Below are positions 3,524 to 21,996 of a stretch of 32,000 bases of DNA, piece by piece (the stretch's first letter is position 1; every line of letters starts with the position of its first letter). The DNA is taken from the NCBI GenBank assembly GCA_021650915.1, contig CP091279.1, forward strand, positions 180,001 to 212,000. The letters run 5' to 3'. Under the pieces are notes generated by a model. That model searched no databases. It was not told the DNA's origin and was given only the letters and a program-made list of their open reading frames with translations. The translations under genes and the position numbers were made by a program. This DNA comes from Candidatus Brocadia sp. Its GTDB lineage: Bacteria > Planctomycetota > Brocadiia > Brocadiales > Brocadiaceae.

Positions 3524-3680
3524 AAAAACAGAGACAGCCTTACCGCCTGGATATTCACTAAAACATCTTCGGCAGTAAGGCTGTCTTTATACGGAGATGT
3601 GAGGCGCATTATCATACGCCCCGACAAAAGACCCTGTTACTTTGCGTCCCACGGTCACCCGTGGTTTGCCTTTATCGTGA
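3524..3680 (-). promoter_or_regulatory. c-di-GMP-I (GEMM-I)-like riboswitch with terminator hairpin, copy 1
   Basis: The minus-strand RNA reads GAUAAAGGCAAACC-ACGG-GUGA-CCGU-GGGACGCAAAG. That is the GGCAAACC / GNRA-capped stem / GGGACGCAAAG signature. A 16-bp hairpin follows (3571-3586 with 3532-3547, one G-U pair), then CUGUUUUU. The element lies 241 nt upstream of the sugar transferase start. Confidence 0.7.
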
Positions 3681-4033: not shown

Positions 4034-4783
4034 TTATTTATGGGCATCCACAAATGACCGGATAATTTCCCTCTGATCGTGACTGACGTCTTTAAGGCGT
4101 ATTCCTGCATAGATCGATTCCTCTGCGGTAAACTCCCTGACACATGTCCCCCGTAAGGTCAATGACGTCGAATTACCATTGAGCCTGAACTGCAAATCGT
4201 AAATCTCCTGATCAATTATCCCCGGATAGCGGACAATTTCTTCCGTACCCTTCTTTCTGGCAACAATATGGCCCGCCAGGACTCCACCCTGGCTCAGGTT
4301 CAGGATATCTGCCCGGCCAAAGAGGGTTCTCCCATCCCTCCGGAATTTAAACTCCGAGGGAAAAGAGGTATTAACCCGGACATGATCTCTTTTTTTCAGG
4401 ACGGTATTGCCGGTTGCAGCCCTCTTTTCCATGATATCGCGTTCGAATGAGGACATGGCTTTCACCTGGTCCTTCTCATCTGACATGATCTGGAAGAGCG
4501 CCTCCTTTTTTGCCATCTCCAGGATACACTGTATCTCGGGCTTTACATTGATTAACCGAAGCTGTACCTCACGGGAGAGGATATTTTCCAACAACGCAAT
4601 CCCTACTCCATCGATCTTATGTGCGTGTTTAAGGTCGATGATGTGATAACATCTGCCCTCGTCCAGGCACTTGTACAGGTGGGATTGAATCTCTAATGCC
4701 CCATTGCCGATTAATCCACCGATGACCTCGATAATCTCTATCCTTGGATTACCTGCCGGAAGGATGTGGTTCGTATTCGGCAC
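4034..4783 (-). CDS. STAS domain - PilZ domain fusion protein (putative c-di-GMP receptor)
   Basis: The N-terminal part looks like a STAS domain (IEIIEVIGGLIGNGALEIQSHL...IIDLKHAHKIDGVGIALLENI...LINVKPEIQCILEM). The C-terminal part carries the PilZ motifs RDHVR (RxxxR) and NLSQGG (D/NxSxxG). The start is GTG. The usual phosphorylatable Ser of anti-sigma antagonists is replaced (IDGVG instead of DSSG). Confidence 0.75.
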   Translation of the reverse strand: MPNTNHILPAGNPRIEIIEVIGGLIGNGALEIQSHLYKCLDEGRCYHIIDLKHAHKIDGVGIALLENILSREVQLRLINVKPEIQCILEMAKKEALFQIMSDEKDQVKAMSSFERDIMEKRAATGNTVLKKRDHVRVNTSFPSEFKFRRDGRTLFGRADILNLSQGGVLAGHIVARKKGTEEIVRYPGIIDQEIYDLQFRLNGNSTSLTLRGTCVREFTAEESIYAGIRLKDVSHDQREIIRSFVDAHK

Positions 4784-7237: not shown

Positions 7238-7415
7238 CAAAAAAGCCTTGCTGCACTGATATTTTTCAAAACATCTTCGGCAGCAAGGCTATCTTTCTCA
7301 ACTACTTCCCTAAATTATTCCAAAGAACTTTTCTGTTCCTTCCACACCTCCCTGTGTGATGAAAGACCCTTTTCTTTGCGTCCCCTGATCGCTCAGGGTT
7401 TGCCTTTATCATCCT
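7238..7415 (-). promoter_or_regulatory. c-di-GMP-I (GEMM-I)-like riboswitch with intrinsic terminator, copy 2
   Basis: The minus-strand RNA reads GAUAAAGGCAAACC-CUGA-GCGA-UCAGG-GGACGCAAAG. An 11-bp hairpin AGCCUUGCUGC...GCAGCAAGGCU follows (7280-7290 with 7244-7254), then U6. The element lies 189 nt upstream of the sigma-54 activator start. Confidence 0.7.
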
Positions 7416-7835: not shown

Positions 7836-10523
7836 TCACCGTGGCAATAAGGACGTTTCCAGAATTTTATACCACTCATTGAAGACATCCCGACTCCTCA
7901 AATCCAGAACCCTCTGTTCGTCACCCTGTCCCTTTTCGATCTCAGGCAACCGTGCTTTATCCGATAACTGCATCTGGTCTGACTTGAATGCCTCCCACCC
8001 TCCCAGCTTATCCGCAATGTGGTATCCAAGCGCACGGTACGCCTCAAACTGCGCCTCATCAAAGAACTGGTCGGCCGTCGATTCATGGGGAAAATCCTTG
8101 TTTTTCGAATGATACTCACGGATATATTCATTTTCATCACCCGTGAGGGAAGACTTGATGTACAGGAGATACCCCGTCTCTCCGTCTCCGTAATGAATTT
8201 TTCCGGATGCACAGTGTTTGTTGGTAAATTCATTTTCATCTTTTCCCCTTCGCAGGGCATTCAGATTAATGTCAATATCGATGCTCAAATCAATGCGGGC
8301 GTACCGTATCAGCTTCGCCAAACCTCCAAAAGTCATATCCGGATCTGCCTCCGCATCGCAGGCAATGATGTATTTGCACCTGCGGCGCAGCAGTTCATAA
8401 ATACCGAGGTTTTCAATGTGACCACCATCTGAGATATTCACATATTTACTATCTTCTGTAATCCAGCCAAATAGTTCTTTTACGAGATAGTACGGCCCGA
8501 CACCTGCAAATGGACTTCGACTATTATATTTTAGGAAAAGGTGTTTAGCCTTCCTTAATTTATGGGGATTTGGAATCCAATATCCCAGTCTGATATTAAG
8601 GAGCGCCATAATAAAAACAAGCGGTTTTATGGTGGTTGTACCCATATTAGGCGCTGCCGCAGCGCCGGATATGGCCATAGCGGTTCCCAGATCCAGGTGA
8701 GAATCCGCCTTTTCCATATCTGCCGTTTTACAAAATCCCGTTTTCATACCGCCGCAAAAGTGTTTACTGAGGATAAAAAAATCCGCATTCCGATCACGAA
8801 GATTAACATCCTCGCTTCCTTGCAGATTAAGCGCCACATTGATCAGGTGATACGGCGCCTTTGTGCCTCCTCTGTTTAGATGGGAAAGTTTTTGTTCATC
8901 ATTCGGTCGGATATTGCTCTCTTTTCCCGCTGTCTGAAACAAATACGCCGGGCTTAATTGGTCCCGGTAATAGTTGTGAAAAGACGTCCTGTTTATATCC
9001 GTAATTATCCTCGTAATACCAAACACTCCCGCGGCAGTGGCAAACAACATGGCTAAAGAAATATACCCGTTCAGCAGGCACTTACATAGCATTAAGTAAA
9101 GGAGGAAAAGAATAAATGGTCCCAGCATACCCAGGAACCAGAGTGTTATTTTCCCCCGCACCTTTGAAATATTTTCAGCCACCTTTCCGGCAAATATTAC
9201 CGGAATAAAGGAAATCACCGCGGCTATTACCGTCCTTATCCATTCCATGCCTAATGCGAGATAATAGGAAAGCACCGTTACTGTGAGTTCCAGAAGCGCG
9301 CATATAAAAACCAACAAGAGTCCAATGCTGAATGTTTTATCATAGCCGGTACGACTTTTGATCTTCTGGAAAAAAAATATCTGAATGAAAAGGAAGAGAA
9401 ATACATAGCACAGATAACCAATTCCAGACACTACGGTTAAACGATACTGGTTGTAAAATGTTTTCCAGTCCAACGAGAAATTTCTTTTATTGATCTGTTT
9501 TCCTACGAATGACCACCAGTTAACGTCGCCATCAATTCCCGTCAAAACATCCCTTATCTCTTGCTTTTGTTTAAACACCCTGCCTTCCAACTGTGCCATA
9601 ACCTCAGGAGGAAGTCCCTCCGACTTTAATTTTTCCCGGGCGTTTTCTGTAATTACATAGTGTGATTGTTGTTCCACCTCATTCAATGTATTACCATACA
9701 ATAATACCGTCACTATTACCGCCGCCATAACATACGGTAAGAGCAAGAGCAGATTAATCAGTGCGCCACGCACGAAAAGAGCCGGTATCTTTAGCCAGTC
9801 GATGATGCCATTCGGCGCGATATAATTGCCATAATTTCTCAGATGTTTAAATGCCAGAGGTTCTGGCTTTCCTTTCTCGTGGCGAAAGGGAAATTCCTTC
9901 TCCCCCGGTCCGGTTTCCGGATTATTGAGCACAGAACTCAGGCATGAGCCAATATACCCACCACCAGAAACGGTCGAGAGGTAATCAACGTGTTTAAGAG
10001 CCCCATGCTCTGCAAGCACCTGCAGGACACCAAGATTAAACGTGGCAGAGCGGATACCGCCGCCCGACAGAGCTAAACCAACAAGACCGTAGCTCGTTGT
10101 TGGTTTAGCTTTTTTCATTAATTCTTTCTTTTTATCCTCGTAAATATTTTTGCAGTGTTCATATTCAGCATTTGTTTCTCTTTCCCAAAAATTCTTGCAC
10201 ACCTGCCTTATGAACAATAAAGGGTTTTTCTTTTCTTTTTCAGAAAGATTTTTTCTGCATTTCTGGAAATTCCTATAGACCTTTTTAACAAGACTTCCCT
10301 TACCTTCCTCCTCTCTCTGAAGTTTTGTTTCCAAATCATGAAGGGTTTTTCGTATTCGTATTACTTCATCCATTTTTGAAAGTTCATTTATCAGATCTCC
10401 TCTTTCCGATCTGAAATCCGCAGGAGAGAATACTTCTTTCCGCCGCGCAGCAATCTCAATTAATTCGGTGGGAAACACTTCTCTATCAAACTGTTCGCTT
10501 AAATCACGATTCTTCTTTTTCAT
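7836..10523 (-). CDS. cPLA2/patatin-like phospholipase with about 6 TM helices inserted between the Ser and Asp motifs
   Basis: Motifs present are LSGGGIRSATF (oxyanion hole, GGGxR), STVSGGGYIG (nucleophile Ser) and ISDGGHIENLG (catalytic Asp). The N-terminal 150 aa are charged and coiled-coil-like. Six hydrophobic helices lie between roughly aa 255 and 520. The track ORF starts at TTG 10550; I prefer ATG 10523, which is preceded by AGGAG 7 nt upstream. Confidence 0.8.
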   Translation of the reverse strand: MKKKNRDLSEQFDREVFPTELIEIAARRKEVFSPADFRSERGDLINELSKMDEVIRIRKTLHDLETKLQREEEGKGSLVKKVYRNFQKCRKNLSEKEKKNPLLFIRQVCKNFWERETNAEYEHCKNIYEDKKKELMKKAKPTTSYGLVGLALSGGGIRSATFNLGVLQVLAEHGALKHVDYLSTVSGGGYIGSCLSSVLNNPETGPGEKEFPFRHEKGKPEPLAFKHLRNYGNYIAPNGIIDWLKIPALFVRGALINLLLLLPYVMAAVIVTVLLYGNTLNEVEQQSHYVITENAREKLKSEGLPPEVMAQLEGRVFKQKQEIRDVLTGIDGDVNWWSFVGKQINKRNFSLDWKTFYNQYRLTVVSGIGYLCYVFLFLFIQIFFFQKIKSRTGYDKTFSIGLLLVFICALLELTVTVLSYYLALGMEWIRTVIAAVISFIPVIFAGKVAENISKVRGKITLWFLGMLGPFILFLLYLMLCKCLLNGYISLAMLFATAAGVFGITRIITDINRTSFHNYYRDQLSPAYLFQTAGKESNIRPNDEQKLSHLNRGGTKAPYHLINVALNLQGSEDVNLRDRNADFFILSKHFCGGMKTGFCKTADMEKADSHLDLGTAMAISGAAAAPNMGTTTIKPLVFIMALLNIRLGYWIPNPHKLRKAKHLFLKYNSRSPFAGVGPYYLVKELFGWITEDSKYVNISDGGHIENLGIYELLRRRCKYIIACDAEADPDMTFGGLAKLIRYARIDLSIDIDINLNALRRGKDENEFTNKHCASGKIHYGDGETGYLLYIKSSLTGDENEYIREYHSKNKDFPHESTADQFFDEAQFEAYRALGYHIADKLGGWEAFKSDQMQLSDKARLPEIEKGQGDEQRVLDLRSRDVFNEWYKILETSLLPR

Positions 10524-10549
10524 TTTTTCGCTCCTGTTCTTCGAGAGCA

Positions 10550-10580
10550 AAGAATCCGCCCGCAGAGCAGGCTGATTCTT
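10550..10580 (-). other. Intercistronic hairpin between the caspase-fusion and phospholipase genes
   Basis: The segment aagaatc (10550-10556) pairs with gattctt (10574-10580), and gcc (10558-10560) pairs with ggc (10570-10572). No U-tract follows. Function is unknown. Confidence 0.35.
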
Positions 10581-10583
10581 TAC

Positions 10584-13145
10584 TTAGTTATCCAGTGCAT
10601 TGCGTTTCACTTCAAAAAATTCTGAAATTTTTCTGTACGTCTCCGCCTGTTTAAAGTAATTAAGGTGGTAGACATGGTCTGCTGGCTGAAATGCATGGCT
10701 TAATGTCTTTTTACCTTGAATGCCTTTTGGCCAGTCAACAATCATTTTTTCTGTATCAACCACTAAATCATTTGGCGCGCCGAAAAAGGCATCGGCAATG
10801 CCGTCAATAATGTCATCCCTGACCCCACCCGCGGAAATTCCTGATGGTTCAAACTCAGACCCAATCGTGTCATACGTTACCACCCCCTTAACATCAGTAC
10901 CTTTCTTGTTTAAGGTGTTGATAAAATCTGAATGGGGATCCATTGCCCAAATCCCTGGAATTGACTGATCTTTGATTTTCTGAGAAAGGAACTTAACCAA
11001 CCCGCCAACGAGGCTAAAGAAAATTTTCATGGGCGCCCCGCCGGCGAAAAAGAAGATATTCGTTAACAGATTGACCATTTTTGACAATGAATCCCATTTG
11101 CTGGTATCTGCCAGACTGGTTCCACCCGCAGGACACGCAACCATAGTTACCCTATCTACGTATCGATATCCTTCGTCAGTAAGCTCGACCAGAGACCGCA
11201 ATACCAGCCCACCACGGCTATGCGTTATTACATCAAACTTCAAACCCACATCCGAAATACCGGATTCCTTCAATTTCATCAGCATCTCACGGGCATTCTC
11301 AAGAGGAGTTTTTGACAGGGTGAAATGGTCATATCCCAGAATGACGGGATAGGTATCCTTTAACGTCTCCAGAATTGCCGGTGGTACATCTTCATATCCG
11401 CCCTCAAGAGAACTTCCTGTGCCATGAATGAAGAGAAGCGCCTTCTTGTTGCCTTTTACCAAATCCCTGACACCATCCCAATGGGTTACCGGATCGGTTT
11501 TTGATAGTCCTTCAACAAAGCCCTTGCTGTGCTCGATCAGCTTAAAGCCTTCCTTGATTACCTTTTCTTCAAATGCCTGCAACATCTTTTTTATAGCTTC
11601 AGAACTGCCCTCCTGGAACCAGTCTTTCGTAAATTTGATAACACAAACAAGCTTGCTCCATATCCCCCGTGTAGTCCTGTTCTGCACCTTAAAAGGAATG
11701 GTAAAAAAGCTCATTGGGCGTATTTCGTCACCCATCAGCCCCTTACTTGCCCCATCATCATCCTTAAAGTGCCACGCCCATACACCGTCTTCATGTGAGA
11801 GAAGAACCGTCTCTTGTTCTGTCTCTCCGGTTTTTTTGAGTTCACCTCTAATGGCAAGTTGAATTGGTTTCAACAGTTCTTCTATACCAATAACACGCTG
11901 TTCATTCGGACAAAATTCAAGCACCTTTTCAACCTTGAAGTATTCACCGTTTTCCAGAAAATCAAGACATTCCGGATGATAAGCATCGCCAATTGCATTA
12001 CGACTGCCATCCTTTGCCTTCCGGTTTGCTATGTCGGTCAAATCCCTTACCGTTCCAATAAATTCAGATGAGGGAAGAAGAATTACATCTCTCGAAATTG
12101 CACATTTTAAATTTTTAGAGGAAATAGATATACGTCTTAATGCCCCATTATCCCCCTGGGATTTGAAATCTGATACGGGGGAGTCTGAAGAAACCGGACT
12201 CGTGTAACCTTTCGGCGGATGCCCTTCACTGCATATCAGGGGGTGCCCATGTTCACAGGTAAGTTCGGTCTTCATGGCTGCAGACAAAAACCTTGTATTT
12301 TTTAGATCTTCATTCCCGAATAATTGCGGAATTTGACTGAAGGAATTATATGCAAGACTATTTTGCACCCTTTTCACAAGTTCCTGATAGGTTATCGTTC
12401 CTCTTGTATCCCGGATTGTTTTGCAAAGGTTATAGGTAAAGGCGCCATGGTAGTCGTTACTAATAAAGGCATCGGCAGAGGTCTGGTCGTCCATACACCC
12501 CGACAGGAGGATATGCTTTGCTTTGGCGCTCGTTTCGGACGCCGTATTTTTCTTGTCTTCCTTAATTCTTGCGCCCATTCGCCGGACAGCCGCCATTCTC
12601 CGGTAGCTTCTCAATGCAACATCCGCCGGTGGCTCAATAAAACGCGGCTGGATCTTTATTTCGCCGGGAGAAATTTGCAACTGCGAAGTAAGATATGCAA
12701 GGTCCCTGGTCGCAGTTCCAGAATGACATGAATCGATACACACCGTTAAAAAAGCCCCCTTAGGTATGCGATCGATGATATCGTTAAAGTCGTCATCAAG
12801 CAGGTAGGAATCCGGATTCCTGAAATCCATATCGTGCAAACAGAGGATTTCATCCAGCGAATCTTCCAGTTCATCGCCATCGCGATCCTGTATCTGTGAG
12901 CCATGCCCTGAAAAATGGAATACCAGGATATCTCCTTCCCGGGCTTCGTCTAAAAGCCAATCAAACCGGTTCATCAGGTTATTCCGGGTAACACCCTCAT
13001 CAACAATGGTCCGAATTTCATCCGTCCGAAACCCGTAAAAACTCGTCAGAATGTCGACCATGTTGCGCACATCGTTGACACAGCCATTGAGAGGTCTTAC
13101 GTATTTATACTTGTTGACCCCCACCAACAATGCCTTTTTCCCCAT
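10584..13145 (-). CDS. Caspase-like peptidase (C14) fused to a C-terminal alpha/beta hydrolase (esterase/lipase-like) domain
   Basis: The N-terminus reads KKALLVGVNKY...NGCVNDV...FHFSGHGSQ (catalytic His) ...CIDSCHSGT (catalytic Cys). The central ~300 aa were not recognised. The C-terminus reads ALLFIHGTGSS...VITHSRGGLVLRS (nucleophile elbow variant). The ATG directly abuts the upstream gene's stop (TAG|ATG), and AAGGAGG lies 5 nt upstream. Confidence 0.8.
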   Translation of the reverse strand: MGKKALLVGVNKYKYVRPLNGCVNDVRNMVDILTSFYGFRTDEIRTIVDEGVTRNNLMNRFDWLLDEAREGDILVFHFSGHGSQIQDRDGDELEDSLDEILCLHDMDFRNPDSYLLDDDFNDIIDRIPKGAFLTVCIDSCHSGTATRDLAYLTSQLQISPGEIKIQPRFIEPPADVALRSYRRMAAVRRMGARIKEDKKNTASETSAKAKHILLSGCMDDQTSADAFISNDYHGAFTYNLCKTIRDTRGTITYQELVKRVQNSLAYNSFSQIPQLFGNEDLKNTRFLSAAMKTELTCEHGHPLICSEGHPPKGYTSPVSSDSPVSDFKSQGDNGALRRISISSKNLKCAISRDVILLPSSEFIGTVRDLTDIANRKAKDGSRNAIGDAYHPECLDFLENGEYFKVEKVLEFCPNEQRVIGIEELLKPIQLAIRGELKKTGETEQETVLLSHEDGVWAWHFKDDDGASKGLMGDEIRPMSFFTIPFKVQNRTTRGIWSKLVCVIKFTKDWFQEGSSEAIKKMLQAFEEKVIKEGFKLIEHSKGFVEGLSKTDPVTHWDGVRDLVKGNKKALLFIHGTGSSLEGGYEDVPPAILETLKDTYPVILGYDHFTLSKTPLENAREMLMKLKESGISDVGLKFDVITHSRGGLVLRSLVELTDEGYRYVDRVTMVACPAGGTSLADTSKWDSLSKMVNLLTNIFFFAGGAPMKIFFSLVGGLVKFLSQKIKDQSIPGIWAMDPHSDFINTLNKKGTDVKGVVTYDTIGSEFEPSGISAGGVRDDIIDGIADAFFGAPNDLVVDTEKMIVDWPKGIQGKKTLSHAFQPADHVYHLNYFKQAETYRKISEFFEVKRNALDN

Positions 13146-14390
13146 CTACTCCTCCTTTTTGTAAAATAACTCCCCTCTGTTGCTCGTGCCATTCCATAAT
13201 TGAAACCCTTGTACTTCATTCGACTGGTCATCAATCTTGAAGATGACATAATCAATCGATTCCTGTTGTCCAAATACGATCTGCTTTTTCTTGTATCCAC
13301 CGGGGACAATCCTTCTTCTCCAGGTGCCGGTATTTACATAATATTTTTCCTTGCCGTCCTCCACATTCAGGAGTTGGACACAACTTTCATGGGTGTGACC
13401 AAAGAGGACGTAGTCGCACTGATGTTGCTCGCACAATTTTAATGCTTCCAACGCATTCTTGTCCGTGTCTTTGATAAAATCCCGCTTGATTTCCAAAAAT
13501 TTTTCGTAAACCCGTTCCAGGGTGGTATCCGTAAAGTGCTTGAATGCTATTTCAAGTTTATCAGCATCATCGGGGAGCAGACTCCAATAGTCGTGCTTTT
13601 GCAACCACTCTTTAACAAACGCATCATGAAAGAATTTATCCGACAGTATGTTCCAGGTATCGATTAATATCTTCTGATTTTTAGGCTTCAGGGACTTCTT
13701 CACCTGGTCAATCCAGTACGGTGTCATGGTAGACGGCCTGAGATTATCGATCTCCTGAAGGGCGTCAAATACATCCGGATCATCGATAACCTTGTTAACC
13801 TCTTCGGGATATTGATTAATTAAGAGCGTTACAATTGCATCGCCTACCGGCAGTGCATTATTTTCCGTTTTATTGTATACGTCATAATTATTGCCATGAA
13901 CTGCATAGACAGGCAACCCGTCTACCCGATATTCCCAGGGAAATGGTTCGCCCTTGCTTTTTGTGTAAGAAATTCCTGAAACGTCCCGGATTTTTTCTCT
14001 CATATCCTCGTACCCTTCGCTATTAATCAGACGGTCGTGATTCCCCATGATATAGGTAATTTTCACCTTTTTTTCTTCTACGTATCCCTTTAAGGTATCA
14101 AAGACCGATTTATTTTTTTTGATCACTTTACTTAAAACCTCGTCCACCCGCTCCTTTTTTTTCTTTGAAGCTTCTGACCACGGCTGCATATCTCCTGTCC
14201 ACTGCGTCGAGCGGATTACATCGATAAAATCACCGAGGATGATAATTTCCAATTTTTTCGTGCCGCCTGCGTTGTCTACGTCACCTTGAATATCACTCCA
14301 GAATCCTTCGAGCGTACCGGCAGTAATATTATGATCGCCTGTGGTAGTATCTGACAAATGAACATCACTGAAAAAGACCTTTATCGACAT
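13146..14390 (-). CDS. Calcineurin-like metallophosphoesterase
   Basis: The ordered motifs are FFSDVHLSD, ILGDFIDV, MGNHDRL, AVHGNNYD and LFGHTHES. A GGAGAAGG SD lies upstream of ATG 14390. Confidence 0.8.
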   Translation of the reverse strand: MSIKVFFSDVHLSDTTTGDHNITAGTLEGFWSDIQGDVDNAGGTKKLEIIILGDFIDVIRSTQWTGDMQPWSEASKKKKERVDEVLSKVIKKNKSVFDTLKGYVEEKKVKITYIMGNHDRLINSEGYEDMREKIRDVSGISYTKSKGEPFPWEYRVDGLPVYAVHGNNYDVYNKTENNALPVGDAIVTLLINQYPEEVNKVIDDPDVFDALQEIDNLRPSTMTPYWIDQVKKSLKPKNQKILIDTWNILSDKFFHDAFVKEWLQKHDYWSLLPDDADKLEIAFKHFTDTTLERVYEKFLEIKRDFIKDTDKNALEALKLCEQHQCDYVLFGHTHESCVQLLNVEDGKEKYYVNTGTWRRRIVPGGYKKKQIVFGQQESIDYVIFKIDDQSNEVQGFQLWNGTSNRGELFYKKEE

Positions 14391-14620
14391 AACCTTCTCC
14401 TTCTCATTAAAGAATAGACTTAACGATTAACCAATTACCCATTTGTTGTCTTAACAGATGGTAAGATTTTTTAGGCATCCAAATTTTTCTTTCTAAAATA
14501 TTTGTTTGATGGTTCTCTCTATTTCTGCGGATGATCGTTACAGCGTATAGACACATTATCAATGGCCGCACAGAAACTTATAATTCCTTACTATCAAGAT
14601 CAAACCCCAAGCGACCGGAC

Positions 14621-15982
14621 TTATTTTTTAAGATGTGACACTCTGCCCCCCTCGTTGTTTTGAAGAATTCTCACTGCGTTTCGCAGTTGCTGAATCCATA
14701 ATGGAGTCCCAGTTCTCTCTTTCCAATTTTTAGGAAAAGACCAATACAGCGTGTGGCTGAATAGCCCCAAGCGGAGATTGGTTTTAACTGCAACATCCTT
14801 GACACCTTGCCCGAACATTGGCGCGACCGGTCCACCGATCAAATCACCCCAGAATGTCCAATGGCAAGGGAAATAGAGGTTGGTCCAGCGGGTAGGTGCG
14901 AATACCGCCGCATGGTGTGGCACCCAAACACCATCCTTCTCGAATGAAAAGGTTTTCAGCTTTAACTTTTTCACAGTCCTGTCTTCTAAGACAGGTGGAC
15001 AAGCCGGAAACTCGCGCTCTTCTTCTTTACGTACAAAATTCCGTTCGTCCCGTGCCAATAACACAGATGCGTGTGCAAGCGGGCTACCCAAAGTAACAAA
15101 ATCAGTTACCTTCCATTTATTTCCCTGACTCTGTAGCTCAGTCAGATAAGCAGATTGGATTGTTTGATACGTTTTTATGTCTAGACTTCCGGTTAAGGAC
15201 TCTCGAACCATATTTTCTAACTTATCAAGCTCTGTGTACGTGGTTGGATTTCTAGATGCAGCCATTACATGAGCATTATGATAACGTACCCAAAGATGCG
15301 TCAGGATGTCATATCCAATCACACTTCCTAAACTGTGTCCTACGACAATAATACGATCATACCTAGGTGAGGAATGCAATTTTTCCAGGAGTTGGATTCC
15401 AGCCTCACGAATCCGGCGTCGAATTTCTATATTTGGCGGGGCGACATGTAAATAACGTGCTGCATCCCCGGCATATTTGATAAGAAATCCAATGAGCAAT
15501 GAGTTAAAAATAAACCATGCAAAGCTACCTACCTTTATGACCCATAGCGAAATCGGCACGAACTTAAACACATGGTTCAAACCGGCTATTACTGCCAGCA
15601 AAAAGAGCGCGATGATCAAGTACCAAATGCCACGCAGTTGCCTGGGTACACGCCAAGGCCAGCGCAAGACCAAAACCTTGGCCCATGCGCCGACATGAGA
15701 AAGAGTCGTACCTTCCATTAAATGCGCCCAATAGAATTCAAAGAAATCCGTCCTCTTCTTGTCACGATTGTCAGCGGTAGTCAGTCGTCTGAGTTCAAAG
15801 TTGCCTGAAATTGCGTCTGGTTTGCTCAAAGCCTGGGCTGGTTTATTGGACCAGCGAAGCGACGAATCGGTAACCCATACTGCCTCAACAAACCCGCGCA
15901 GTGTGTCCATTGGTACTTGTTCGCCGATGCCGTGAATCAAGACGACTGCTTGTTTTGGTTCTGGTTTTTCCTCTTCTGCCAT
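14621..15982 (-). CDS. Membrane-embedded alpha/beta hydrolase (lipase-like, GHSLG)
   Basis: VVLIHGIGEQ lies near the N-terminus. Hydrophobic helices follow (IWYLIIALFLLAVIAGL, WVIKVGSFAWFIFNSLLIGFLI), then IIVVGHSLGSVIGYD. A perfect AAGGAGGT SD precedes the ATG. Confidence 0.75.
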   Translation of the reverse strand: MAEEEKPEPKQAVVLIHGIGEQVPMDTLRGFVEAVWVTDSSLRWSNKPAQALSKPDAISGNFELRRLTTADNRDKKRTDFFEFYWAHLMEGTTLSHVGAWAKVLVLRWPWRVPRQLRGIWYLIIALFLLAVIAGLNHVFKFVPISLWVIKVGSFAWFIFNSLLIGFLIKYAGDAARYLHVAPPNIEIRRRIREAGIQLLEKLHSSPRYDRIIVVGHSLGSVIGYDILTHLWVRYHNAHVMAASRNPTTYTELDKLENMVRESLTGSLDIKTYQTIQSAYLTELQSQGNKWKVTDFVTLGSPLAHASVLLARDERNFVRKEEEREFPACPPVLEDRTVKKLKLKTFSFEKDGVWVPHHAAVFAPTRWTNLYFPCHWTFWGDLIGGPVAPMFGQGVKDVAVKTNLRLGLFSHTLYWSFPKNWKERTGTPLWIQQLRNAVRILQNNEGGRVSHLKK

Positions 15983-16030
15983 GCTTTACCTCCTTTGTGA
16001 TAATTAACCATTAAGAACAAAGCAAACAAT

Positions 16031-17587
16031 TTATGTACTGACAGAAAAGGGGGCAAAACGTTTTATAAGCAACCAGATTAATTGCCCCATGTCTTTGTCT
16101 AAAATGTCATTATGTGCATCATTTGGTTTATTTTCACCATTGCTAGAATTACATCCATCAACTATTACACTAGCGTCAATCAGTATTACTTTTTTCTCAT
16201 CTTCTTTCGGTATTTTTGATAATTTATCCAAATCTGTTTCGTAATTGTTTGTCCATTTGATCACATGAAAGACACCCTCATTATTTTCTTTCTTTATTTT
16301 TTTATTTTTTTCTTCTTCATTTTCTTTTTTTTCTGCATAGGCCAAACCATATTTACCGCCAACATGCCGTGAACCGGTAATAAAACGTGCAGTTTGATTT
16401 GCTGTATCATACCGTGACGATGTCAATGTAAATTTGGTCTCGTAATCTTTAAATCCTGCATAAGGAGAGCCTTCCCATCCTGCGTTTGCTACGAACCTTT
16501 TTGCACTGAATGCCCCCTGTAATCCGATAAAAAGATCTGCGTGTGACTCTGAAGAACTCTTGCGCAATTCAGACTTTTCAGACTTTTCAGGTTTTATATA
16601 TTCCTTACTAATAATTGCCTGAGAAAGGATCTGCGCTCCCATGCTGTGACCGATGGCAACAATCCTGGGACTAAAATCCTCTTTATATTCTTTCTTACAA
16701 TCGGTTTGAAATTCTTCTTTCGCTGACAATACTACCTTATGAATAACCCAATTTGCAATGGTACACCCAATTTCATCAGCATCGCCTTGTTTGGTAAAAT
16801 AACTAAAAAGAAATACTGTGTTTTTTTTCAACCAATTATTTTCTATTCCAGACCAAACGCTAGGCCATGTAAAACCAATTACCAGCGGGTTAAAGGAATC
16901 GCCTTTCTCATTATGAGCAGCATTTTTAACCTTATCAAGTATTGTATTGTAGCGATATATTGATTCCTGTTGATTGTTATTCCACCCCATAGACAAAATA
17001 ATGATGTGAGAATACGGTTTTTCCTGCTTTTCCGGCTCCCTACGCCATGTATGCACTTTTTCCTTTAAATCACTTACCAGCCTTTTTTCTAAGCATTCAA
17101 GCGCCTCGTATCCATCCTCGTAGTTTAAGTCATCTTTTTTATATTCGTCATAGGCATTATACAGAAAGTATGGCTTTCTATGTGTGTTAAAAGGACTGTT
17201 ATCTGGTTCTTCAAAATATCGCGCAATATGCGTTATTAGCATTGCCGTGTCGTCACCTGTGTATCTTTTAAAATTTTTGTCTCTTTTCTTTTTCTTTTTA
17301 ATCTCAGGGTCTCCACTATTTTCTTTGGATTCAGAAAGCAGTGAAAATCGGTCCGGATAACACTCCTCCGGAATCCCTCTTAATGATTCTCTTTCCCTTT
17401 TTTCAATACCAATAAGATAACCATCGTATTCTAATGAGAGATGTGATATGCGAGCCAGGTCACTGTATGGCAAATACGTTTGTATTTTACTGTTTTTGTA
17501 AATATTTTTTGTTTGCATCTTATTAGCCGAGCATCCGGCAAGAATCAGTAGCGAGAACAGTACAAAACCAAGATTATACTTTCGCAT
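16031..17587 (-). CDS. Lipoprotein alpha/beta hydrolase (GHSMG; DUF900-like esterase)
   Basis: From ATG 17587 the N-terminus is MRKYNLGFVLFSLLILAGC, a signal peptide ending in a lipobox. The nucleophile motif is IVAIGHSMGAQI. The protein has Lys/Glu/Asn-rich low-complexity stretches, and the DNA is AT-rich. The track start at 17635 is TTG and contains the RBS, so I reject the extension. Confidence 0.7.
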   Translation of the reverse strand: MRKYNLGFVLFSLLILAGCSANKMQTKNIYKNSKIQTYLPYSDLARISHLSLEYDGYLIGIEKRERESLRGIPEECYPDRFSLLSESKENSGDPEIKKKKKRDKNFKRYTGDDTAMLITHIARYFEEPDNSPFNTHRKPYFLYNAYDEYKKDDLNYEDGYEALECLEKRLVSDLKEKVHTWRREPEKQEKPYSHIIILSMGWNNNQQESIYRYNTILDKVKNAAHNEKGDSFNPLVIGFTWPSVWSGIENNWLKKNTVFLFSYFTKQGDADEIGCTIANWVIHKVVLSAKEEFQTDCKKEYKEDFSPRIVAIGHSMGAQILSQAIISKEYIKPEKSEKSELRKSSSESHADLFIGLQGAFSAKRFVANAGWEGSPYAGFKDYETKFTLTSSRYDTANQTARFITGSRHVGGKYGLAYAEKKENEEEKNKKIKKENNEGVFHVIKWTNNYETDLDKLSKIPKEDEKKVILIDASVIVDGCNSSNGENKPNDAHNDILDKDMGQLIWLLIKRFAPFSVST

Positions 17588-17827
17588 TGTTGTTTTTCCT
17601 TTCTCTGAAGTCAATGTAGTCTCATCGATTACCAATTACACGTTCATACTGCATTAATAAACTGAAAGCCAAAAAGGCAAATAAAATTACACGGTTTTCA
17701 TTTTATTCTCCTCCAACATAAAATCGTATTGTCGTTATTCAAAACTTGGCGCGGCAAATGACATCAATTTCATTACTTTCAATGGGCACACTGGTAACGA
17801 TTGAGCCTTTTCATTCTCTTTATCTCA

Positions 17828-17860
17828 GTCAGTGCCACCTGCCCTGCTGGTGGCACTGAC
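17828..17860. other. 12-bp GC-rich hairpin between the first and second genes of the cluster
   Basis: The segment gtcagtgccacc (17828-17839) pairs with ggtggcactgac (17849-17860) across a 9-nt loop. No U-tract follows on the minus strand. It could be a partial terminator or an RNA processing or stability element. Confidence 0.4.
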
Positions 17861-17971
17861 ACTGTTTTAAGGCATAGCAAAATTACATGAAATTTCCTCC
17901 AGTAATCTGGAATTTATTACAAAATATTATTAGACAATACCAATAAATCCGCATTACTATAATTACAACTG

Positions 17972-19837
17972 TTACGGAGCCACTGTCGGTGTAGGCGAAA
18001 CAGTCTCTATAGGTTTAGTTTTGAAAGATTCTTCAGATCCCTCAGATTTGCCTAAAGTATTTTCTGCTGCAATTCTGTAATAATATGTAGCGCCAAGTAA
18101 TAAGCCTTTTATTTCAACATTTATTAGCTTCTCTTCCTTATCAGTTACCTCTATCTTATCAGACTGGCTTCCATATGCCCCACTGACTGTGCCGTAGTCA
18201 AACCAAGCTGTTGTTGAAGCGCCATTGGCAGTTACCATTCCATGCAGCGTAGCAGAATTTGCAGTTGTATTCGTGGCTGTACCTGTTTCCACCGTTGGGG
18301 TAGAGATTTTGGTAACGAATGAATTCTCACTTCCATAAGCCGTATCTGCGGAATTTTTTACTGCAATTCTGTAATGATATGTAGTAGCAGGCTTTAAATC
18401 ACTTATTTCAGCTGTTACCGGTGTATCGCCTGTTCCGGTTATTGTTCCCGGCTGCGCATCTTTTTTTCGGCTATAATTTCCGGATTGCGTGCCATAATCA
18501 AACCACGCGTTAGTGGATGCATCACTATTGGCAGTTACTGTCCCATGCAATGTAACAGAATTTGCAGTCATACTCGTAGCCGTACCTGTTTCTACTGTTG
18601 GTTTAGGGATTACCACGTCTACAGCAAAATTGCCTGAACGACCAAGCACATTAAACACGGTTACAGTCGAGGAACCTGGTCCAACGCCTTTAATTACGAT
18701 TCTATCAGTGCCCCGTTCAAAATCACTAATATTATCAACAGTCACTACTCTTATATCATCAGATGCATACGTTATTGCCTTGCTATTGATTACATGTACA
18801 GTATGAGTTCCTCCAACACTAATGCTCAATCTCGTTGGCACTACTTTGATTTCTCCCAACTTTTCAAGCATTCCTGTTGCCGCCTTTAAATCCTCGATTG
18901 TCGGAATCGTCTGAAATAACGCCTTATCAACCAGTTTTAGGCAAGCCGCTGTCTCTACCAAAAGCTGGCTTCCTTCCGGGGTAAGTTTTTCTGCACTTAT
19001 TGTGGTTATAGCCCCATTTTGTGTCATTTTCTGGTAATAACGCGCCTCAGCGTCCTGGAGTAATGCAAGTCCATCTTTGTATGCTCCAACCCTGTCTCTT
19101 GCCTGAAAGATATTCTGCAGTTCTGGTATAACAGCGCTAACTGCGGCCAAAGCAGCAGCAGTTGTTACATCCTTTGTAATAAGACCCAACGTTGCACCGG
19201 CAGCAGCAGCAAGTATCTGCACTGTACCCGAACCCAGCCGCACTCTTCTTCCAAAATCCATTCTCGCTCTTAGTGCCTTTTGTATATCACTGGAGAATCC
19301 AATAACATCCGCATCGGTTACTTTAACGTCTTTCAACGGCACGCTCACTCCAAGCCCAGTAAATTCAATACTATTATCCTTTACTTTGAACTTCATTCCA
19401 TTTACAGCATATTCTTTTTCCTCATACTTAATCAAATCATTGAGTACTGGTTTGATATTTTCTTCTATAATCTGGTCTTCAGGTTTTAAATTAACCGTTT
19501 GGATATGTATTTTGATTTTGTCCGTGCATGCCTTTATCAGCTCATCTTTCTTTTTTTCTTTATTTTCACTATCTACCAACTCTCGGAGGGCCTTTTTGAC
19601 CTCACCTTCTTTACCTGGCTTAATAAAATCACGGATCTTTTCTACACTCTTCTCTATATTGTCATCTTTTGTCATAACCATAGAACGAGCCCACACCCTG
19701 TCCAGCAAGGTAGGTTGATATTTATAATATTTTTTATCTGCTCTAAAGGGGTGATAACCACATCCAACAATACTGCTTGATGACACAGAAAAAACCAAAA
19801 AATATACTAATTTACTGCTTTTCACACGGTTACCCAC
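17972..19837 (-). CDS. Lipoprotein with Ala-rich hydrophobic segment, Big_2-like domain and two FN3-like repeats
   Basis: The start is GTG with AAGGAG 6 nt upstream. The lipobox is SSIVGC (Cys26). Residues 331-408 resemble Big_2 (IVIKGVGPGSSTVTVFN). Residues 413-510 and 514-608 are paralogous PTVETGTAT...ANS.TLHG.VTAN...AWFDYGT...Y.YRIA repeats. Confidence 0.75.
   Translation of the reverse strand: MGNRVKSSKLVYFLVFSVSSSSIVGCGYHPFRADKKYYKYQPTLLDRVWARSMVMTKDDNIEKSVEKIRDFIKPGKEGEVKKALRELVDSENKEKKKDELIKACTDKIKIHIQTVNLKPEDQIIEENIKPVLNDLIKYEEKEYAVNGMKFKVKDNSIEFTGLGVSVPLKDVKVTDADVIGFSSDIQKALRARMDFGRRVRLGSGTVQILAAAAGATLGLITKDVTTAAALAAVSAVIPELQNIFQARDRVGAYKDGLALLQDAEARYYQKMTQNGAITTISAEKLTPEGSQLLVETAACLKLVDKALFQTIPTIEDLKAATGMLEKLGEIKVVPTRLSISVGGTHTVHVINSKAITYASDDIRVVTVDNISDFERGTDRIVIKGVGPGSSTVTVFNVLGRSGNFAVDVVIPKPTVETGTATSMTANSVTLHGTVTANSDASTNAWFDYGTQSGNYSRKKDAQPGTITGTGDTPVTAEISDLKPATTYHYRIAVKNSADTAYGSENSFVTKISTPTVETGTATNTTANSATLHGMVTANGASTTAWFDYGTVSGAYGSQSDKIEVTDKEEKLINVEIKGLLLGATYYYRIAAENTLGKSEGSEESFKTKPIETVSPTPTVAP
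18014..18601 (-). repeat. Intragenic tandem duplication encoding the two FN3-like repeats
   Basis: The repeat units are 18308-18601 and 18014-18298. Their ends share ccgtacctgtttc(t/c)ac(t/c)gttgg, and the protein repeats align clearly. Confidence 0.7.
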
Positions 19838-20085
19838 ATGATTCTCCTTTTTTCTTTTGGCGTATGAATTTTGCTGAAGAAAATTTACAAAGACTCATCA
19901 ACATACAGCCTCGTTATGAAGCACATCATTTATGCACCCATAAAAGGTCTAACATACCGATATTTATTAATTCCCACCCCTGACACTTTTTTAGGTATTT
20001 TTTCGCACCTCCTTTTATAAACCCTTCTAAACTGACCTTGTTGATCAGCCATAATGTTTTATTTTCAGGACCCTTTCACCATAAT

Positions 20086-20240
20086 AAAAAAAGCCTTACT
20101 GCAAAGATTTTTCAAAACATCTTCGGCAGTAAGGCTGTCTTTATTCCTGGGGATCGTGTTTTCTAAACCACTTCCGTGTCGGCTTAAAGATCCACTACTT
20201 TGCGCCCCCTGATCACTCAGGGTTTACCTTTCTCGTTATG
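20086..20240 (-). promoter_or_regulatory. GEMM-I-like riboswitch with intrinsic terminator, copy 3 (variant core)
   Basis: The minus-strand RNA reads GAGAAAGGUAAACC-CUGA-GUGA-UCAGG-GGGCGCAAAG. The hairpin AGCCUUACUGC...GCAGUAAGGCU follows (20126-20136 with 20092-20102), then U6. The core differs from copies 1 and 2 at two conserved positions (GGU vs GGC; GGCGC vs GACGC). The element lies 248 nt upstream of the lipoprotein GTG. Confidence 0.55.
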
Positions 20241-20387: not shown

Positions 20388-20447
20388 AAAAAAGTGTGTC
20401 ATGGCACAGATGTGCCAGTTACAAAAGTGTGCCATGACACACTTTTT
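20388..20447. terminator. Perfect 15-bp hairpin flanked by A6 and T5 (bidirectional intrinsic-terminator shape)
   Basis: The segment gtgtgtcatggcaca (20394-20408) pairs with tgtgccatgacacac (20428-20442) across a 19-nt loop. A-run 20388-20393 and T-run 20443-20447 flank it. It sits between the IS element and riboswitch copy 3. Confidence 0.6.
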
Positions 20448-20680: not shown

Positions 20681-21996
20681 GGTTCTTCTCCCAATTAGTT
20701 TGCAAAAGCTTGTATAATTTTTAATGAAAAGTACCGTTCGTCATGAAATCCATAAGCTTTTCTTTTGATAACTTTGATCTTATTATTAACCCCTTCGAGT
20801 TTACTGGTATGAATTTTATAATCGCAGTGATTCAAGATTCCGTAGCTGTATTTTGTAAGCATATTTGCAAACGTATTCACGACAGAATAGTTGAGCGTTT
20901 TCGCTAAGAGGCTCCATTCATCAATGGCTTTTCTCGCCCACGTCCGTGAGGTATAGGTCCAAATATGTTTGAGCTTATCTTTAAGAATCAGAATGGTATT
21001 TATGGTTTCATTAAGCGACAAGAGCTGTTTGAGATGTTCTCGATGTTTTTTCCTGCGAATATTTCGTTTGTTTTTTAACAAAAGATATTTTGAACCCTTT
21101 TTGGTATTCAGCATTTCGCACCTTGTCAATAACTTTACCAAAACTTGAAACCACATGAAACAGGTCAAAGACTATCTTAACATGAGGCACGTGCTTTTTT
21201 ACTGCATGAATATAAGGATCCCACATATCCATGGCAATGGCCTCAAGCGCCTGCCTTTGTTCCTCTGTCATACCCGCAAAGAAGGTTCCCAGCGTTTCTT
21301 TTGTTCTTTCCTTTCCCACCCAGACTACGCGGCCACTCAGATAGTCCAGAACAACAGTCAAATAGCGCTGTCCCTTCTTAACAGAGATTTCGTCTACTGC
21401 CAGTATGCGAAGATTCTGATAATCTGTCTGCGCGTATTGTCGTTCCAGAAAAAACGTATCGATGGTTTTTACGGTTTTCCAGTTAATTCCAAAATGTTTT
21501 GCAACTTCGGTTACGGCTAACACTTTACACAATTCGTGAATATACGCTGCTAAACGATGCGTAACACGACTGTAGGGTTGAAAAAAACCCAAGTCTTCAA
21601 CTACGATTCGATTGCATGACTCACAGGCAATCTTACGATACGAACAATTTATCCATACGCGAACTGAACCAGGATTCAGATCCCGCAAAGATCGTTTGTC
21701 ATGACGGTAAATGCGCTGTGCTTTGCTGCCACACGCATGACATATTGGACGAAATCGTTCATCGGGCACGGCAGTAAGCTGAGATATCTCAGCATCAGGA
21801 AAAACAGTTTGCTTCGTAATTCTTACCCGCTGAAAAGGAAAATATGGTAATATACTTAATGGGGACATTGCTGGTCTCCTGTAAATAGTTTATAGAACGG
21901 TATATATCTATCTATAGGAAACACCAAATATCCACTCTTTTCACTGATTTAAAGGATTTTCTTCTCAATTCTTATTGACTAATTGGGAGAAGAACC
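20681..21996 (-). mobile_element. ISL3-family insertion sequence (1316 bp) with perfect 19-bp terminal inverted repeats
   Basis: The repeat ggttcttctcccaattagt (20681-20699) is the reverse complement of actaattgggagaagaacc (21978-21996). The GG(C/T)TCTT start is typical of ISL3 ends. The element encloses the transposase frames. Confidence 0.85.
20695..21868 (-). pseudogene. ISL3 transposase, split by a frameshift in a homopolymer
   Basis: ORF 21011..21868 carries a zinc-finger-like CHACG...CESC segment and the N-terminal DDE part. ORF 20695..21168 carries KGSKYLLLKNKRN...EGVNNKIKVIKRKAYGFHDERYF. The frames join at the run 21098-21102 (A5 on the coding strand). With A4 the reading would be EYQKGSKYLL, a continuous transposase. 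Confidence 0.8.

Follow-up and report, generated by a model that had tools for sequence, protein, structure and literature searches.

A c-di-GMP-I riboswitch precedes a lineage-variable cluster of predicted lipase-like hydrolases, a metacaspase fusion and a metallophosphoesterase in Candidatus Brocadia

Do six adjacent genes for putative lipases, a caspase fusion protein, a phosphoesterase and a surface lipoprotein, preceded by a riboswitch-like leader, form a single functional system? The question is raised by a locus of Candidatus Brocadia, an anammox planctomycete, contained in a stretch of 32,000 nucleotides that was analysed as a whole and is referred to here as the window. The initial annotation, made from sequence alone, described the locus as a candidate undescribed system of six consecutive minus-strand genes (here A to F). 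This layout is borne out by the list of open reading frames (ORFs), and the spacers of 384, 48, 230, 0 and 60 nt are exactly those obtained when genes were called independently on public contigs of identical sequence. All motifs quoted for B to F were located at definite positions in the sequences. The features of the locus, in window coordinates, are:

20122–20238, minus strand: c-di-GMP-I (GEMM-I) riboswitch aptamer (Rfam RF01051)
20085–20136, minus strand: predicted intrinsic terminator, the expression platform (sequence, MFE fold, conserved helix)
17972–19837, minus strand: gene A, riboswitch-proximal, 621-aa lipoprotein (ORF, Pfam, lipobox)
17827–17860, minus strand: perfect 12-bp hairpin, lacking a U-run, in the A–B spacer (sequence, fold)
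16031–17587, minus strand: gene B, 518-aa lipoprotein (ORF 16031–17635; independent gene call, Pfam, motif)
14621–15982, minus strand: gene C, 453-aa predicted serine esterase (ORF, motifs)
13146–14390, minus strand: gene D, 414-aa metallophosphoesterase, LpxH-like (Pfam Metallophos, fold search)
10584–13145, minus strand: gene E, 853-aa metacaspase (C14) with DUF7362 and a DUF7379 lipase-like hydrolase (Pfam, hhalign)
7836–10523, minus strand: gene F, 895-aa patatin-like phospholipase (ORF 7836–10550; Pfam Patatin, independent gene call)

The ISL3 element noted upstream of the cluster is present as a transposase at 20695–21868 that is split into two ORFs, and the composition is indeed uneven, with a low and deviant G+C content of 0.35–0.37 across B compared to 0.53 at tkt. 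The window contains two more riboswitches that belong to the clan of the leader, at 7276–7414 and 3567–3679, which makes three inside 17 kb. Both are ON-type, and the genes behind them code for a sigma-54 activator and an EPS priming sugar transferase. Near the cluster there is also a gene for a STAS-PilZ protein.

The leader, initially described as GEMM-I-like, is a bona fide c-di-GMP-I riboswitch (RF01051, 50.3 bits against a gathering score of 35, E = 3.6e-7), and the match covers the full aptamer (model positions 1–87). A GNRA-type tetraloop is present in P1, and the cmscan alignment shows that the segments AAAGGU..., GCAAAG and ACAGCC are kept. The nucleotides that we take to be the ligand contacts (G20, A47 and C92 in Vc2 numbering) are canonical. 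The 5' arm of the terminator, AGCCTTACTGC, doubles as the 3' strand of the aptamer; because the two structures compete for this one strand, the leader is predicted to be an ON switch. The minimum free energy fold favours the terminator hairpin, with aptamer P2 lost (−55.4 kcal/mol, z = −4.6). The eight riboswitches seen in Brocadia are near-identical cassettes, including the expression platform, and in the seven that were aligned together the terminator helix is kept, with 91.6% of cells paired versus 34–50% with slid partners and two compensatory pairs. In its full-length, above-gathering match, its P1 GNRA-type tetraloop and its transcription-terminator platform, the leader resembles other RF01051 riboswitches (Vc2 of Vibrio cholerae, Geobacter, Clostridioides), and as with many c-di-GMP-I riboswitches the first gene downstream encodes a surface protein. 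It differs from them in fronting a metacaspase/lipase cluster and in its host, an anammox planctomycete; we found no publication on c-di-GMP riboswitches from this group.

The leader had been regarded as the only visible regulatory input, which is not supported by the sequence downstream of A. The hairpin in the A–B spacer is strong (−32.3 kcal/mol for its 101-nt context, z = −3.1) and may act as a terminator or attenuator, or as an element of processing or stability, and part of the region upstream of B is shared with a B copy sited elsewhere in L087, one of the sister loci, which hints at an own promoter for B. Across lineages, D has no conserved upstream element; the C–D spacer in the window is 230 nt long. 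D and E are probably made together, because the stop codon of D abuts the start codon of E. One explanation of this arrangement is that the six genes are not a system at all: the riboswitch would control A alone (or whichever gene comes first, typically one for a surface or membrane protein), and B to F would be transcribed independently and merely share a variable genomic island. The strong hairpin and the 384-nt gap after A are consistent with this, as are the upstream region of B and the long spacers before D in the sister loci L087 (547 nt) and L010 (278 nt); the abutting codons of D and E argue against it.

Comparison with related genomes bears on the same alternative. A search for synteny, which the initial annotation had proposed, found homologues co-localised elsewhere in the combinations D–E, D with a C-type esterase, and E–F–B. 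D and E adjoin directly in the window and in L007/L087, with 117 nt between them in L010; D adjoins a C-type esterase in two lineages (the window and L177); and E, F and B are found together in three (the window, L087 and L091). The notion of a fixed system of six genes does not hold, since each lineage has its own gene order and content, and A was found only in that of the window, tblastn giving no match for it in the further Brocadiaceae loci tested. Lipoproteins and membrane proteins are the products of many of the variable partner genes. The sister loci also encode further caspase-fold proteases, C25 in L087 and CHAT in L089.

Across Brocadia lineages no member of the cluster is as constant as D, and a c-di-GMP riboswitch lies upstream of it in four (the window, L007/L087, L010 and L177). 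The rare variants GGTAAAC and GGGGGC, held in common, identify the riboswitches of the window, L087 and L177 as orthologous; the first gene behind them is A in the window, X291 in L087 and X1107 in L177. In three lineages, then, between which the identity of D falls to as low as 54%, this riboswitch has kept its place ahead of D although the gene between them was exchanged; unless the linkage is under selection, this would be hard to explain. In every version of the cluster all genes share one strand over 12–14 kb. E occurs alone, with neither D, F, B nor a riboswitch, in at least seven loci, whereas clusters that contain D have one; D in L094 occurs without a riboswitch. On this evidence we consider it unlikely that the riboswitch serves the first gene only, even though A was found in one lineage only and most relatives of E stand alone, as do most of those of D and F sampled outside Brocadiaceae: no conserved neighbours were found around 80 sampled distant relatives of D, and two relatives of F outside Brocadiaceae are stand-alone genes, likewise with no conserved neighbours. 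The cluster is lineage-variable, and part of it recurs in related Brocadia genomes together with the riboswitch link.

The identification of D as a metallophosphoesterase is confirmed by Pfam (Metallophos, E = 2.9e-9) and by the presence of DVHLSD, GDFID, GNHD and GHTH, and the metal-binding motifs are invariant in 16 of 16 homologues. The structure model (pLDDT 86.5) contains a helical insertion of ~140 residues (helices at 182–323) within the core, and a hydrophobicity scan gives no hydrophobic helix. LpxH is the top match in the sequence profile search and the best in the fold search (E = 5.5e-8), followed by SMPDL3A/B, with a TM score to LpxH of only 0.34/0.57 and 13–15% identity. As in LpxH and SMPDL3A/B, the metallophosphoesterase motif set of D is complete, and a helical insertion is present. 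This insertion coincides with a gap in the alignments to LpxH from the fold search, which we read as the position of the LpxH lipid-binding cap. The size of the insertion, the low identity and the lack of lipid A genes nearby set D apart from LpxH, and the last of these led us to reject D as a housekeeping LpxH; it also scores below the LpxH equivalog cutoffs of NCBIfam (NF003743, 20.6 vs 134; TIGR01854, 17.9 vs 190). The putative substrate assignments for the cluster rest on weak similarity in fold or sequence, for D that to LpxH.

D could instead be a nucleotide or cyclic-dinucleotide phosphodiesterase that provides second-messenger feedback or signal turnover in a riboswitch-controlled unit. 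SMPDL3A, its second-best fold neighbour, hydrolyses nucleotides and also degrades cGAMP. One of the matched entries, 5ebe, is the enzyme bound to 5'-CMP. The calcineurin-type phosphoesterases of conflict systems, too, are predicted to be nucleotide phosphodiesterases (PMC7159879). We nevertheless regard this role as highly improbable: LpxH is the best match in both sequence and fold, the insertion sits (in our reading) where LpxH has its lipid-binding cap, all other enzymes of the cluster are lipase-like, and the c-di-GMP phosphodiesterases known so far belong to the EAL or HD-GYP type.

Both A and B have lipoprotein-type signal peptides, as read from their translations (IVGC and LAGC, respectively). 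Of the domains assigned to A, the two FN3/Pur_ac_phosph_N-like repeats are recovered (Pfam, 8.1e-12) and the Big_2-like domain is not reproduced at E ≤ 0.1. B, described as a lipoprotein with GHSMG, has both features, and a weak DUF900 (alpha/beta-hydrolase) match is limited to residues 205–271 (Pfam, 8.2e-6); in L007/L087 its homologues (59% identity) lie at the opposite cluster end, and L091 has a fragment. C contains HGIGEQ and GHSLG with two hydrophobic helices inserted between them and has no significant Pfam match; its homologue in L177, located directly after D (BLASTP E = 8e-17), gives weak matches to DUF676, Lipase_3 and PGAP1.

F belongs to the patatin family (PF01734, 36.9 bits against a cutoff of 27.7, E = 5.5e-9). 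The motifs SGGGIRS, TVSGGG and SDGG are all there, with the oxyanion GGGxR, nucleophile xxSxG and DGG elements at residues 162, 193 and 707, and in the nucleophile motif T replaces the first G of GxSxG. Where about six transmembrane helices had been estimated, five hydrophobic helices exceed the scan threshold; a multi-helix hydrophobic block, predicted to lie in the membrane, interrupts the catalytic domain. More than 7600 homologues occur in many phyla, some of them fused to vWA, and the L007/L087 cluster contains a 60% homologue and L091 fragments. The glycine-rich oxyanion, serine-nucleophile and DGG motifs are those of cPLA2-like phospholipases such as ExoU and CapV of CBASS; F differs from these patatins in that the hydrophobic block splits the domain, no cyclase or CBASS partner accompanies it, and it has no PADLOC match.

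E combines, as annotated, a caspase dyad with a C-terminal hydrolase: Peptidase_C14 (4.8e-36) with FSGHGS and DSCHSG, and DUF7379 (6.7e-53) with IHGTGSS and THSRGG. A PDB profile search retrieves Mca1/Yca1 (E = 3.5e-47) and matches the C-terminus to family I lipases, and residues 391–840 align to the DUF7362-DUF7379 family (hhalign probability 100, E = 2.5e-69). His81/Cys140 and Ser643/Asp793/His827 are invariant in the homologue alignment. In a sample of 40 DUF7379-family proteins we found fusions to CHAT (21), Peptidase_C25 (6) and Peptidase_C11 (2), with TCAD7 in 10/40 and DUF7363 in 18/40; the last two domains are absent from E (Pfam).

The combination of caspase and alpha/beta-hydrolase is not as unfamiliar as had been supposed, because the theme has already been predicted computationally. 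Kaur, Burroughs, Iyer and Aravind (2020; PMC7159879) described an obligatory alpha/beta-hydrolase–caspase pairing in MoxR-vWA (VMAP) ternary conflict systems, which also employ calcineurin-type phosphoesterase effectors and are enriched in multicellular or aggregating prokaryotes. Like VMAP-system and DUF7362-DUF7379-TCAD7-DUF7363-CHAT proteins, E joins the DUF7362-DUF7379 module to a caspase-superfamily protease with an intact dyad, and a calcineurin-type phosphoesterase (D) adjoins it; unlike them, it has an N-terminal C14 metacaspase instead of a C-terminal CHAT domain and neither TCAD7 nor DUF7363. Judged from its domain order, E is a permuted form of the pairing predicted in these systems. 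The Brocadia cluster further differs from the ternary systems in being fronted by a riboswitch. The EACC1-caspase system (PMC7159879; NCBIfam NF047832) shares with E the N-terminal caspase followed by a variable C-terminal enzymatic domain; this identification was rejected, as E scores 45.9 on NF047832 against a cutoff of 140, and the gene 5' of E encodes the soluble phosphoesterase D and not a single-TM EACC1 protein.

These relationships raise the alternative of a cell-death or conflict module, in which D, E and F (and B and C) would be abortive-infection or kin-protective suicide effectors, the metacaspase would activate, or be activated with, membrane-destroying lipases, and the riboswitch would do no more than permit expression in aggregated cells, among which altruistic death is of benefit. 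Apart from the family context of E and the phosphoesterase effectors, the vWA fusions among F-family members, the gene turnover between close lineages, the adjacent IS element and patchy G+C content, the extra caspase-fold proteases of two sister loci and the intact catalytic residues throughout all agree with it. On the other hand, no MoxR, vWA, VMAP/iSTAND, STAND, GTPase or EACC1 partner was detected in A to F or the ten flanking ORFs scanned, nor any MoxR, vWA or VMAP component in the sister-locus proteins scanned. The initial annotation's statements that no named pathway or defence system matches the cluster (PADLOC, NCBIfam) and that A to F contain no NTPase, nuclease, kinase or transcription-factor domain (Pfam, PADLOC and NCBIfam scans) both stand: with PADLOC-DB 2.0, E to the generic 'caspase' model PDLC02987 is the sole match among A to F, and nine partner proteins of the sister loci give none. 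Many partners are lipoproteins or exported proteins, unlike cytoplasmic sensor-effector systems, and E is widespread in Brocadiaceae lineages, often as a lone gene, with no full-length homologue on plasmids or phages. We consider a cell-death module possible, if on the unlikely side.

The reading that we tentatively prefer is a c-di-GMP-induced module, mosaic in make-up and specific to Brocadia, that acts on membrane lipids or the envelope. In its favour are the conserved link between riboswitch and D, the partial synteny, the lipid-related matches of D, E, F and the C homologue, the invariant catalytic residues, the further riboswitches and the STAS-PilZ protein in the surroundings, and the lipoproteins and membrane proteins among the variable partners. 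With c-di-GMP bound, the aptamer would keep its 3' strand, so that the overlapping terminator could not form, and RNA polymerase would read on into A, the surface lipoprotein, and presumably past the U-less hairpin and through the long spacers into B to F. At the recurrent core would stand D, the LpxH-like metallophosphoesterase with its large helical cap, together with a set of lipase-type serine hydrolases: the membrane-anchored esterase C, the lipoprotein hydrolase B, the membrane patatin F and the fusion E. Expressed in the aggregated, high-c-di-GMP state, the module would cleave membrane or envelope lipids, with D acting on a head group or pyrophosphate and B, C, E and F on acyl chains, and the metacaspase of E may process itself via the Arg/Lys-rich p20–p10 linker, or process a partner. 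The analysis establishes what the riboswitch is and how it is built, which domains the proteins have, that catalytic residues are intact and that synteny is partial; co-transcription, the substrates and the outcome, remodelling as opposed to killing, are what we infer. The metacaspase speaks against this lipid or envelope role, as it is not an obvious component of lipid remodelling. The hairpin and long spacers, the deviant G+C content and upstream region of B, D without a riboswitch in L094, the lone E genes and the lack of conserved neighbours around the distant D and F relatives likewise count against the module.

A bolder interpretation, which we think improbable, is that the c-di-GMP riboswitch licenses the expression of an apoptosis-like effector cluster that lacks an NTPase, and whose effectors would be the metacaspase-lipase fusion, the membrane patatin, the LpxH-like phosphodiesterase and the further esterases. 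If this were true, the cells of anammox granules, aggregated and high in c-di-GMP, would arm a module for self-destruction or autolysis, and a 'multicellular' conflict effector set would be tied directly to a second-messenger RNA switch.

Our results support the view that the six minus-strand genes A to F form a Brocadia-specific mosaic headed by a predicted c-di-GMP ON riboswitch, with the metallophosphoesterase D as its anchor. The open reading frames are as the initial annotation had described them, gene calls on identical public contigs reproduced its spacers of 384, 48, 230, 0 and 60 nt, and all motifs that it had quoted were found, each at a single position. The features of the window discussed here are the following.

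27891-30854 (+): P5CR-tkt gene pair, 15 kb from E
20695-21868 (-): ISL3 transposase in two overlapping ORFs, probably a frameshifted pseudogene
20389-20447: long perfect palindrome, between the ISL3 element and the riboswitch promoter region
20122-20238 (-): c-di-GMP-I riboswitch heading the cluster
7836-19837 (-): genes A to F
10556-10572 (-): small GC-rich hairpin, then a weak T-rich tail, in the 60-nt E-F spacer; could be an attenuator
7276-7414 (-): second c-di-GMP-I riboswitch, 55.2 bits, same terminator design, with a sigma-70-like promoter at 7468-7440
5636-7048 (-): sigma-54 AAA+ activator behind the second riboswitch, with a PocR sensory domain and no receiver-domain match
4034-4783 (-): STAS + PilZ protein of 249 aa, between the two downstream riboswitch units; likely c-di-GMP receptor
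3567-3679 (-): third riboswitch, Rfam c-di-GMP-I-GGC variant, 61.6 bits
1826-3283 (-): EPS priming sugar transferase (Bac_transf) behind the third riboswitch

Pfam agrees with the proposed assignment of D, E and F to phosphoesterase, caspase and patatin (Metallophos, Peptidase_C14 and Patatin, respectively), and in A it recovers the two FN3-like repeats (FN3/Pur_ac_phosph_N-like) but not the Big_2 domain called there initially. Both A and B start with lipoprotein signal peptides; B, the GHSMG lipoprotein, has a weak, partial Pfam match to DUF900, and the serine esterase C has no significant Pfam match, its family showing weak affinities to DUF676, Lipase_3 and PGAP1. The family of F comprises more than 7600 membrane-interrupted patatins, some fused to vWA; a general link of F-type patatins to caspases was not supported, two distant homologues of F being found in unrelated contexts. 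In the structure model of D, which is confident (pLDDT 86.5), a helical insert of ~140 residues interrupts a metallophosphoesterase core. In both sequence and fold D matches LpxH best, then SMPDL3A/B; identity to LpxH is low, at 13-15%, and D fails the LpxH equivalog models.

Homologues of E and of D were collected, and the loci holding them (L numbers) were fetched and searched with all window proteins by tblastn. Co-localisation of the homologues in other genomes, as the initial annotation had envisaged, extends to subsets of A to F, in Brocadiaceae only; no fetched locus has the complete set, and a fixed six-gene system conserved elsewhere is rejected. Gene A was not matched by tblastn in any other Brocadiaceae locus searched with it.

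Riboswitch and gene order in the window and in Brocadiaceae loci (X with a number, other genes; primes, homologues of B, C and F).
Window: c-di-GMP-I; A-B-C-D-E-F
L007/L087 (Brocadia, E 71%): c-di-GMP-I; X291-D-E-X508-F'-B'-PPC/C25 protease
L010 (B. sapporoensis): GGC-type; X1107-D-E
L177 (D 54%): c-di-GMP-I; X1107-D-C'-X445
L091: no riboswitch; E, then fragments of F and B
L089: GGC-type, 3.6 kb upstream; E-CHAT-...-D-like (25%)-X1184

In this arrangement D would anchor the cluster, surrounded by a varying set of caspase-fold proteases and hydrolases of lipase type. C' of L177 is homologous to C (BLASTP E 8e-17), and X1184 to X1107. Protease content, like lipase content, recurs across the sister clusters but is interchangeable; these hold a PPC + Peptidase_C25 protein (L087 19951-21675) and a CHAT/C25 lipoprotein (L089 9827-12850). 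E is solitary and without a riboswitch in L008, L009, L088, L090, L092, L093 and L082; L094 has D without a riboswitch, and in L176 the sequence upstream of D is 482 nt only. Outside Brocadiaceae, phmmer and all-against-all clustering of 80 metagenome loci revealed no recurrent neighbour of D, which was rejected as a marker of a conserved operon in other phyla.

Several neighbours of D and E may be recorded here. X1107/X1184 (L010 5073-8396; L177 6488-9902; L089 17171-19700) is a large membrane protein with a single hydrophobic helix at the N-terminus and eight more in the C-terminal half. Pfam, NCBIfam and PADLOC give no match to it. It adjoins D or a D-like gene in three lineages, in two of which it directly follows the riboswitch, and it is absent from the window. 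In L176 (483-4787) a second metallophosphoesterase, of 555 aa, follows D, and in L094 (15416-17947) an HD-GYP-type (HD_5) GAF-HAMP protein is encoded ~4 kb downstream of the D homologue. In the Brocadiaceae genome of L090 (5945-12607), E comes directly after P5CR-transketolase-DUF72 genes, and the P5CR-tkt neighbourhood may be the ancestral position of E.

The GEMM-I-like leader of the initial annotation is a c-di-GMP-I riboswitch scoring above the Rfam gathering score. Its 3' aptamer strand AGCCTTACTGC (20136-20126) is complementary to GCAGTAAGGCT (20102-20092), which lies directly after the aptamer and is followed by a T-run. In the minimum-free-energy fold of the ligand-free RNA the terminator wins over aptamer helix P2; since it forms at the cost of P2, ligand binding should block termination, and the element is predicted to be a c-di-GMP ON switch. 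Across a joint alignment of seven riboswitches of one clan (three from the window, one from L087, two from L010 and one from L089), the aptamer is almost identical and the terminator identical in design, its helix being 91.6% paired versus 34-50% in slid controls, with two compensatory pairs; for these only seven related sequences covariation support is modest and conservation strong.

Eight distinct copies of the riboswitch were located, namely rs1, rs2 and rs3 of the window, L087 7089-7205, L010 2420-2562 and 4718-4828, L089 3311-3400 and L177 6297-6414. All eight come from the window or from loci with D or a D-like gene; about 90 kb of sequence surrounding Brocadiaceae E genes without a nearby D contained none. 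The paralogous Brocadia copies are near-identical through aptamer, linker and terminator, and look like one regulatory cassette duplicated into many loci. A group II intron match (L177 5594-5664) lies just upstream of the L177 riboswitch. Because the palindrome of the window stands between the ISL3 element and the riboswitch promoter region, the element may have displaced the original upstream flank, which is AspRS in L087 and L010.

The riboswitches of the window, L087 and L177 have the rare variants GGTAAAC and GGGGGC and the same P2 insert in common and, judged by these characters, are orthologous, though the first gene behind differs in each. The riboswitch-D linkage has thus persisted through a divergence of D to 54% identity and a replacement of the gene in between. 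This persistence is the strongest argument, an indirect one, that the riboswitch would matter beyond the first gene, and it speaks against regulation of the first gene only, which we rank third and consider improbable. Within the cluster, the stop codon of D abuts the start codon of E, and the A-B gap contains a perfect 12-bp hairpin without a U-run. The C-D gap has no conserved element in common with the sequences preceding D in sister loci, where a search for a conserved promoter or RNA element found none; the long spacers yielded no further Rfam element or extra riboswitch, and the sigma-54 promoter consensus occurs window-wide at chance level only. There are hints that B may have its own promoter: its G+C is markedly lower, and its upstream region is partly similar to that of B' in L087, where B' stands at the cluster's other end.

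The window holds three near-identical, predicted ON-type riboswitches within 17 kb. An RNA switch over an enhancer-binding protein, as at the second riboswitch, would constitute a regulatory cascade. The third carries A where the variant is defined by G, and so do the 'GGC' copies of L010 and L089; its c-di-GMP-I-GGC label is therefore probably nominal, and from our own mapping of these copies onto the Vc2 structure, ordinary c-di-GMP specificity is presumably to be expected. As the function of the cluster we tentatively rank first an action on lipids of the membrane or envelope, induced by c-di-GMP when the cells are aggregated. It is favoured by the sigma-54 activator and EPS transferase that window riboswitches also front, by the STAS-PilZ protein nearby, and by partner proteins that are often lipoproteins or membrane proteins.

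E matches Peptidase_C14 and DUF7379 in Pfam. Its N-terminus is type-I-metacaspase-like (PDB Mca1/Yca1, E 3.5e-47), with an Arg/Lys-rich linker, of low confidence in the model, between p20 and p10, and its C-terminus is similar to family I lipases. The structure model is poor (pLDDT 59), recovering only the metacaspase and lipase folds and leaving the middle domain unresolved; profile-profile alignment assigns residues 391-840 to DUF7362 + DUF7379 (probability 100, E 2.5e-69). All 15 homologues compared retain His81/Cys140 and Ser643/Asp793/His827. With the C-terminal domain as query, an exhaustive search gave 2699 cluster representatives; 40 sampled ones carry DUF7362 (28/40), CHAT (21/40), DUF7363 (18/40), TCAD7 (10/40), Peptidase_C25 (6/40) and Peptidase_C11 (2/40). 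Since E carries DUF7362 and DUF7379, which are habitually joined to a caspase-fold protease, it is by domain composition a permuted form of a hydrolase family usually fused to such a protease. A mobile-element origin of E is unsupported, with no full-length match on plasmids or phages and a single plasmid match to DUF7379 in an uninformative context.

Kaur et al. 2020 (PMC7159879) reported, for the 'ternary' conflict systems of MoxR-vWA type, an obligatory alpha/beta-hydrolase-caspase pairing as well as calcineurin-type phosphoesterase effectors. E has the same pairing, and its family ties, together with the rapid gene turnover, speak for a cell-death or conflict module; the MoxR-vWA core components are, however, missing from the scanned window proteins, and we rank this reading second, as a doubtful one. 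A known defence system is rejected, the gene combination matching none that is named in PADLOC or NCBIfam, as initially supposed. The locus is a variant that joins a GEMM-I regulon to the alpha/beta-hydrolase-caspase pairing, each of a kind already known; literature searches on DUF7379, TCAD7 and anammox riboswitches found nothing specific.

Anammox bacteria, to which the planctomycete carrying the window belongs, are cultivated in granules and biofilms, with c-di-GMP as the presumed driver of aggregation; to our knowledge, their c-di-GMP output genes are essentially unknown. The locus supplies concrete, testable outputs headed by riboswitches: a cluster of an adhesin-like lipoprotein and lipid hydrolases, a sigma-54 activator and an EPS priming transferase. 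The alpha/beta-hydrolase-caspase pairing occurs here without an NTPase-based system, in a permuted fusion and beside an LpxH-like enzyme, a simpler setting for learning the role of this widespread, uncharacterised pair. Should the module prove to kill or lyse cells, it would tie RNA second-messenger sensing to programmed cell death in an organism of biotechnological importance.
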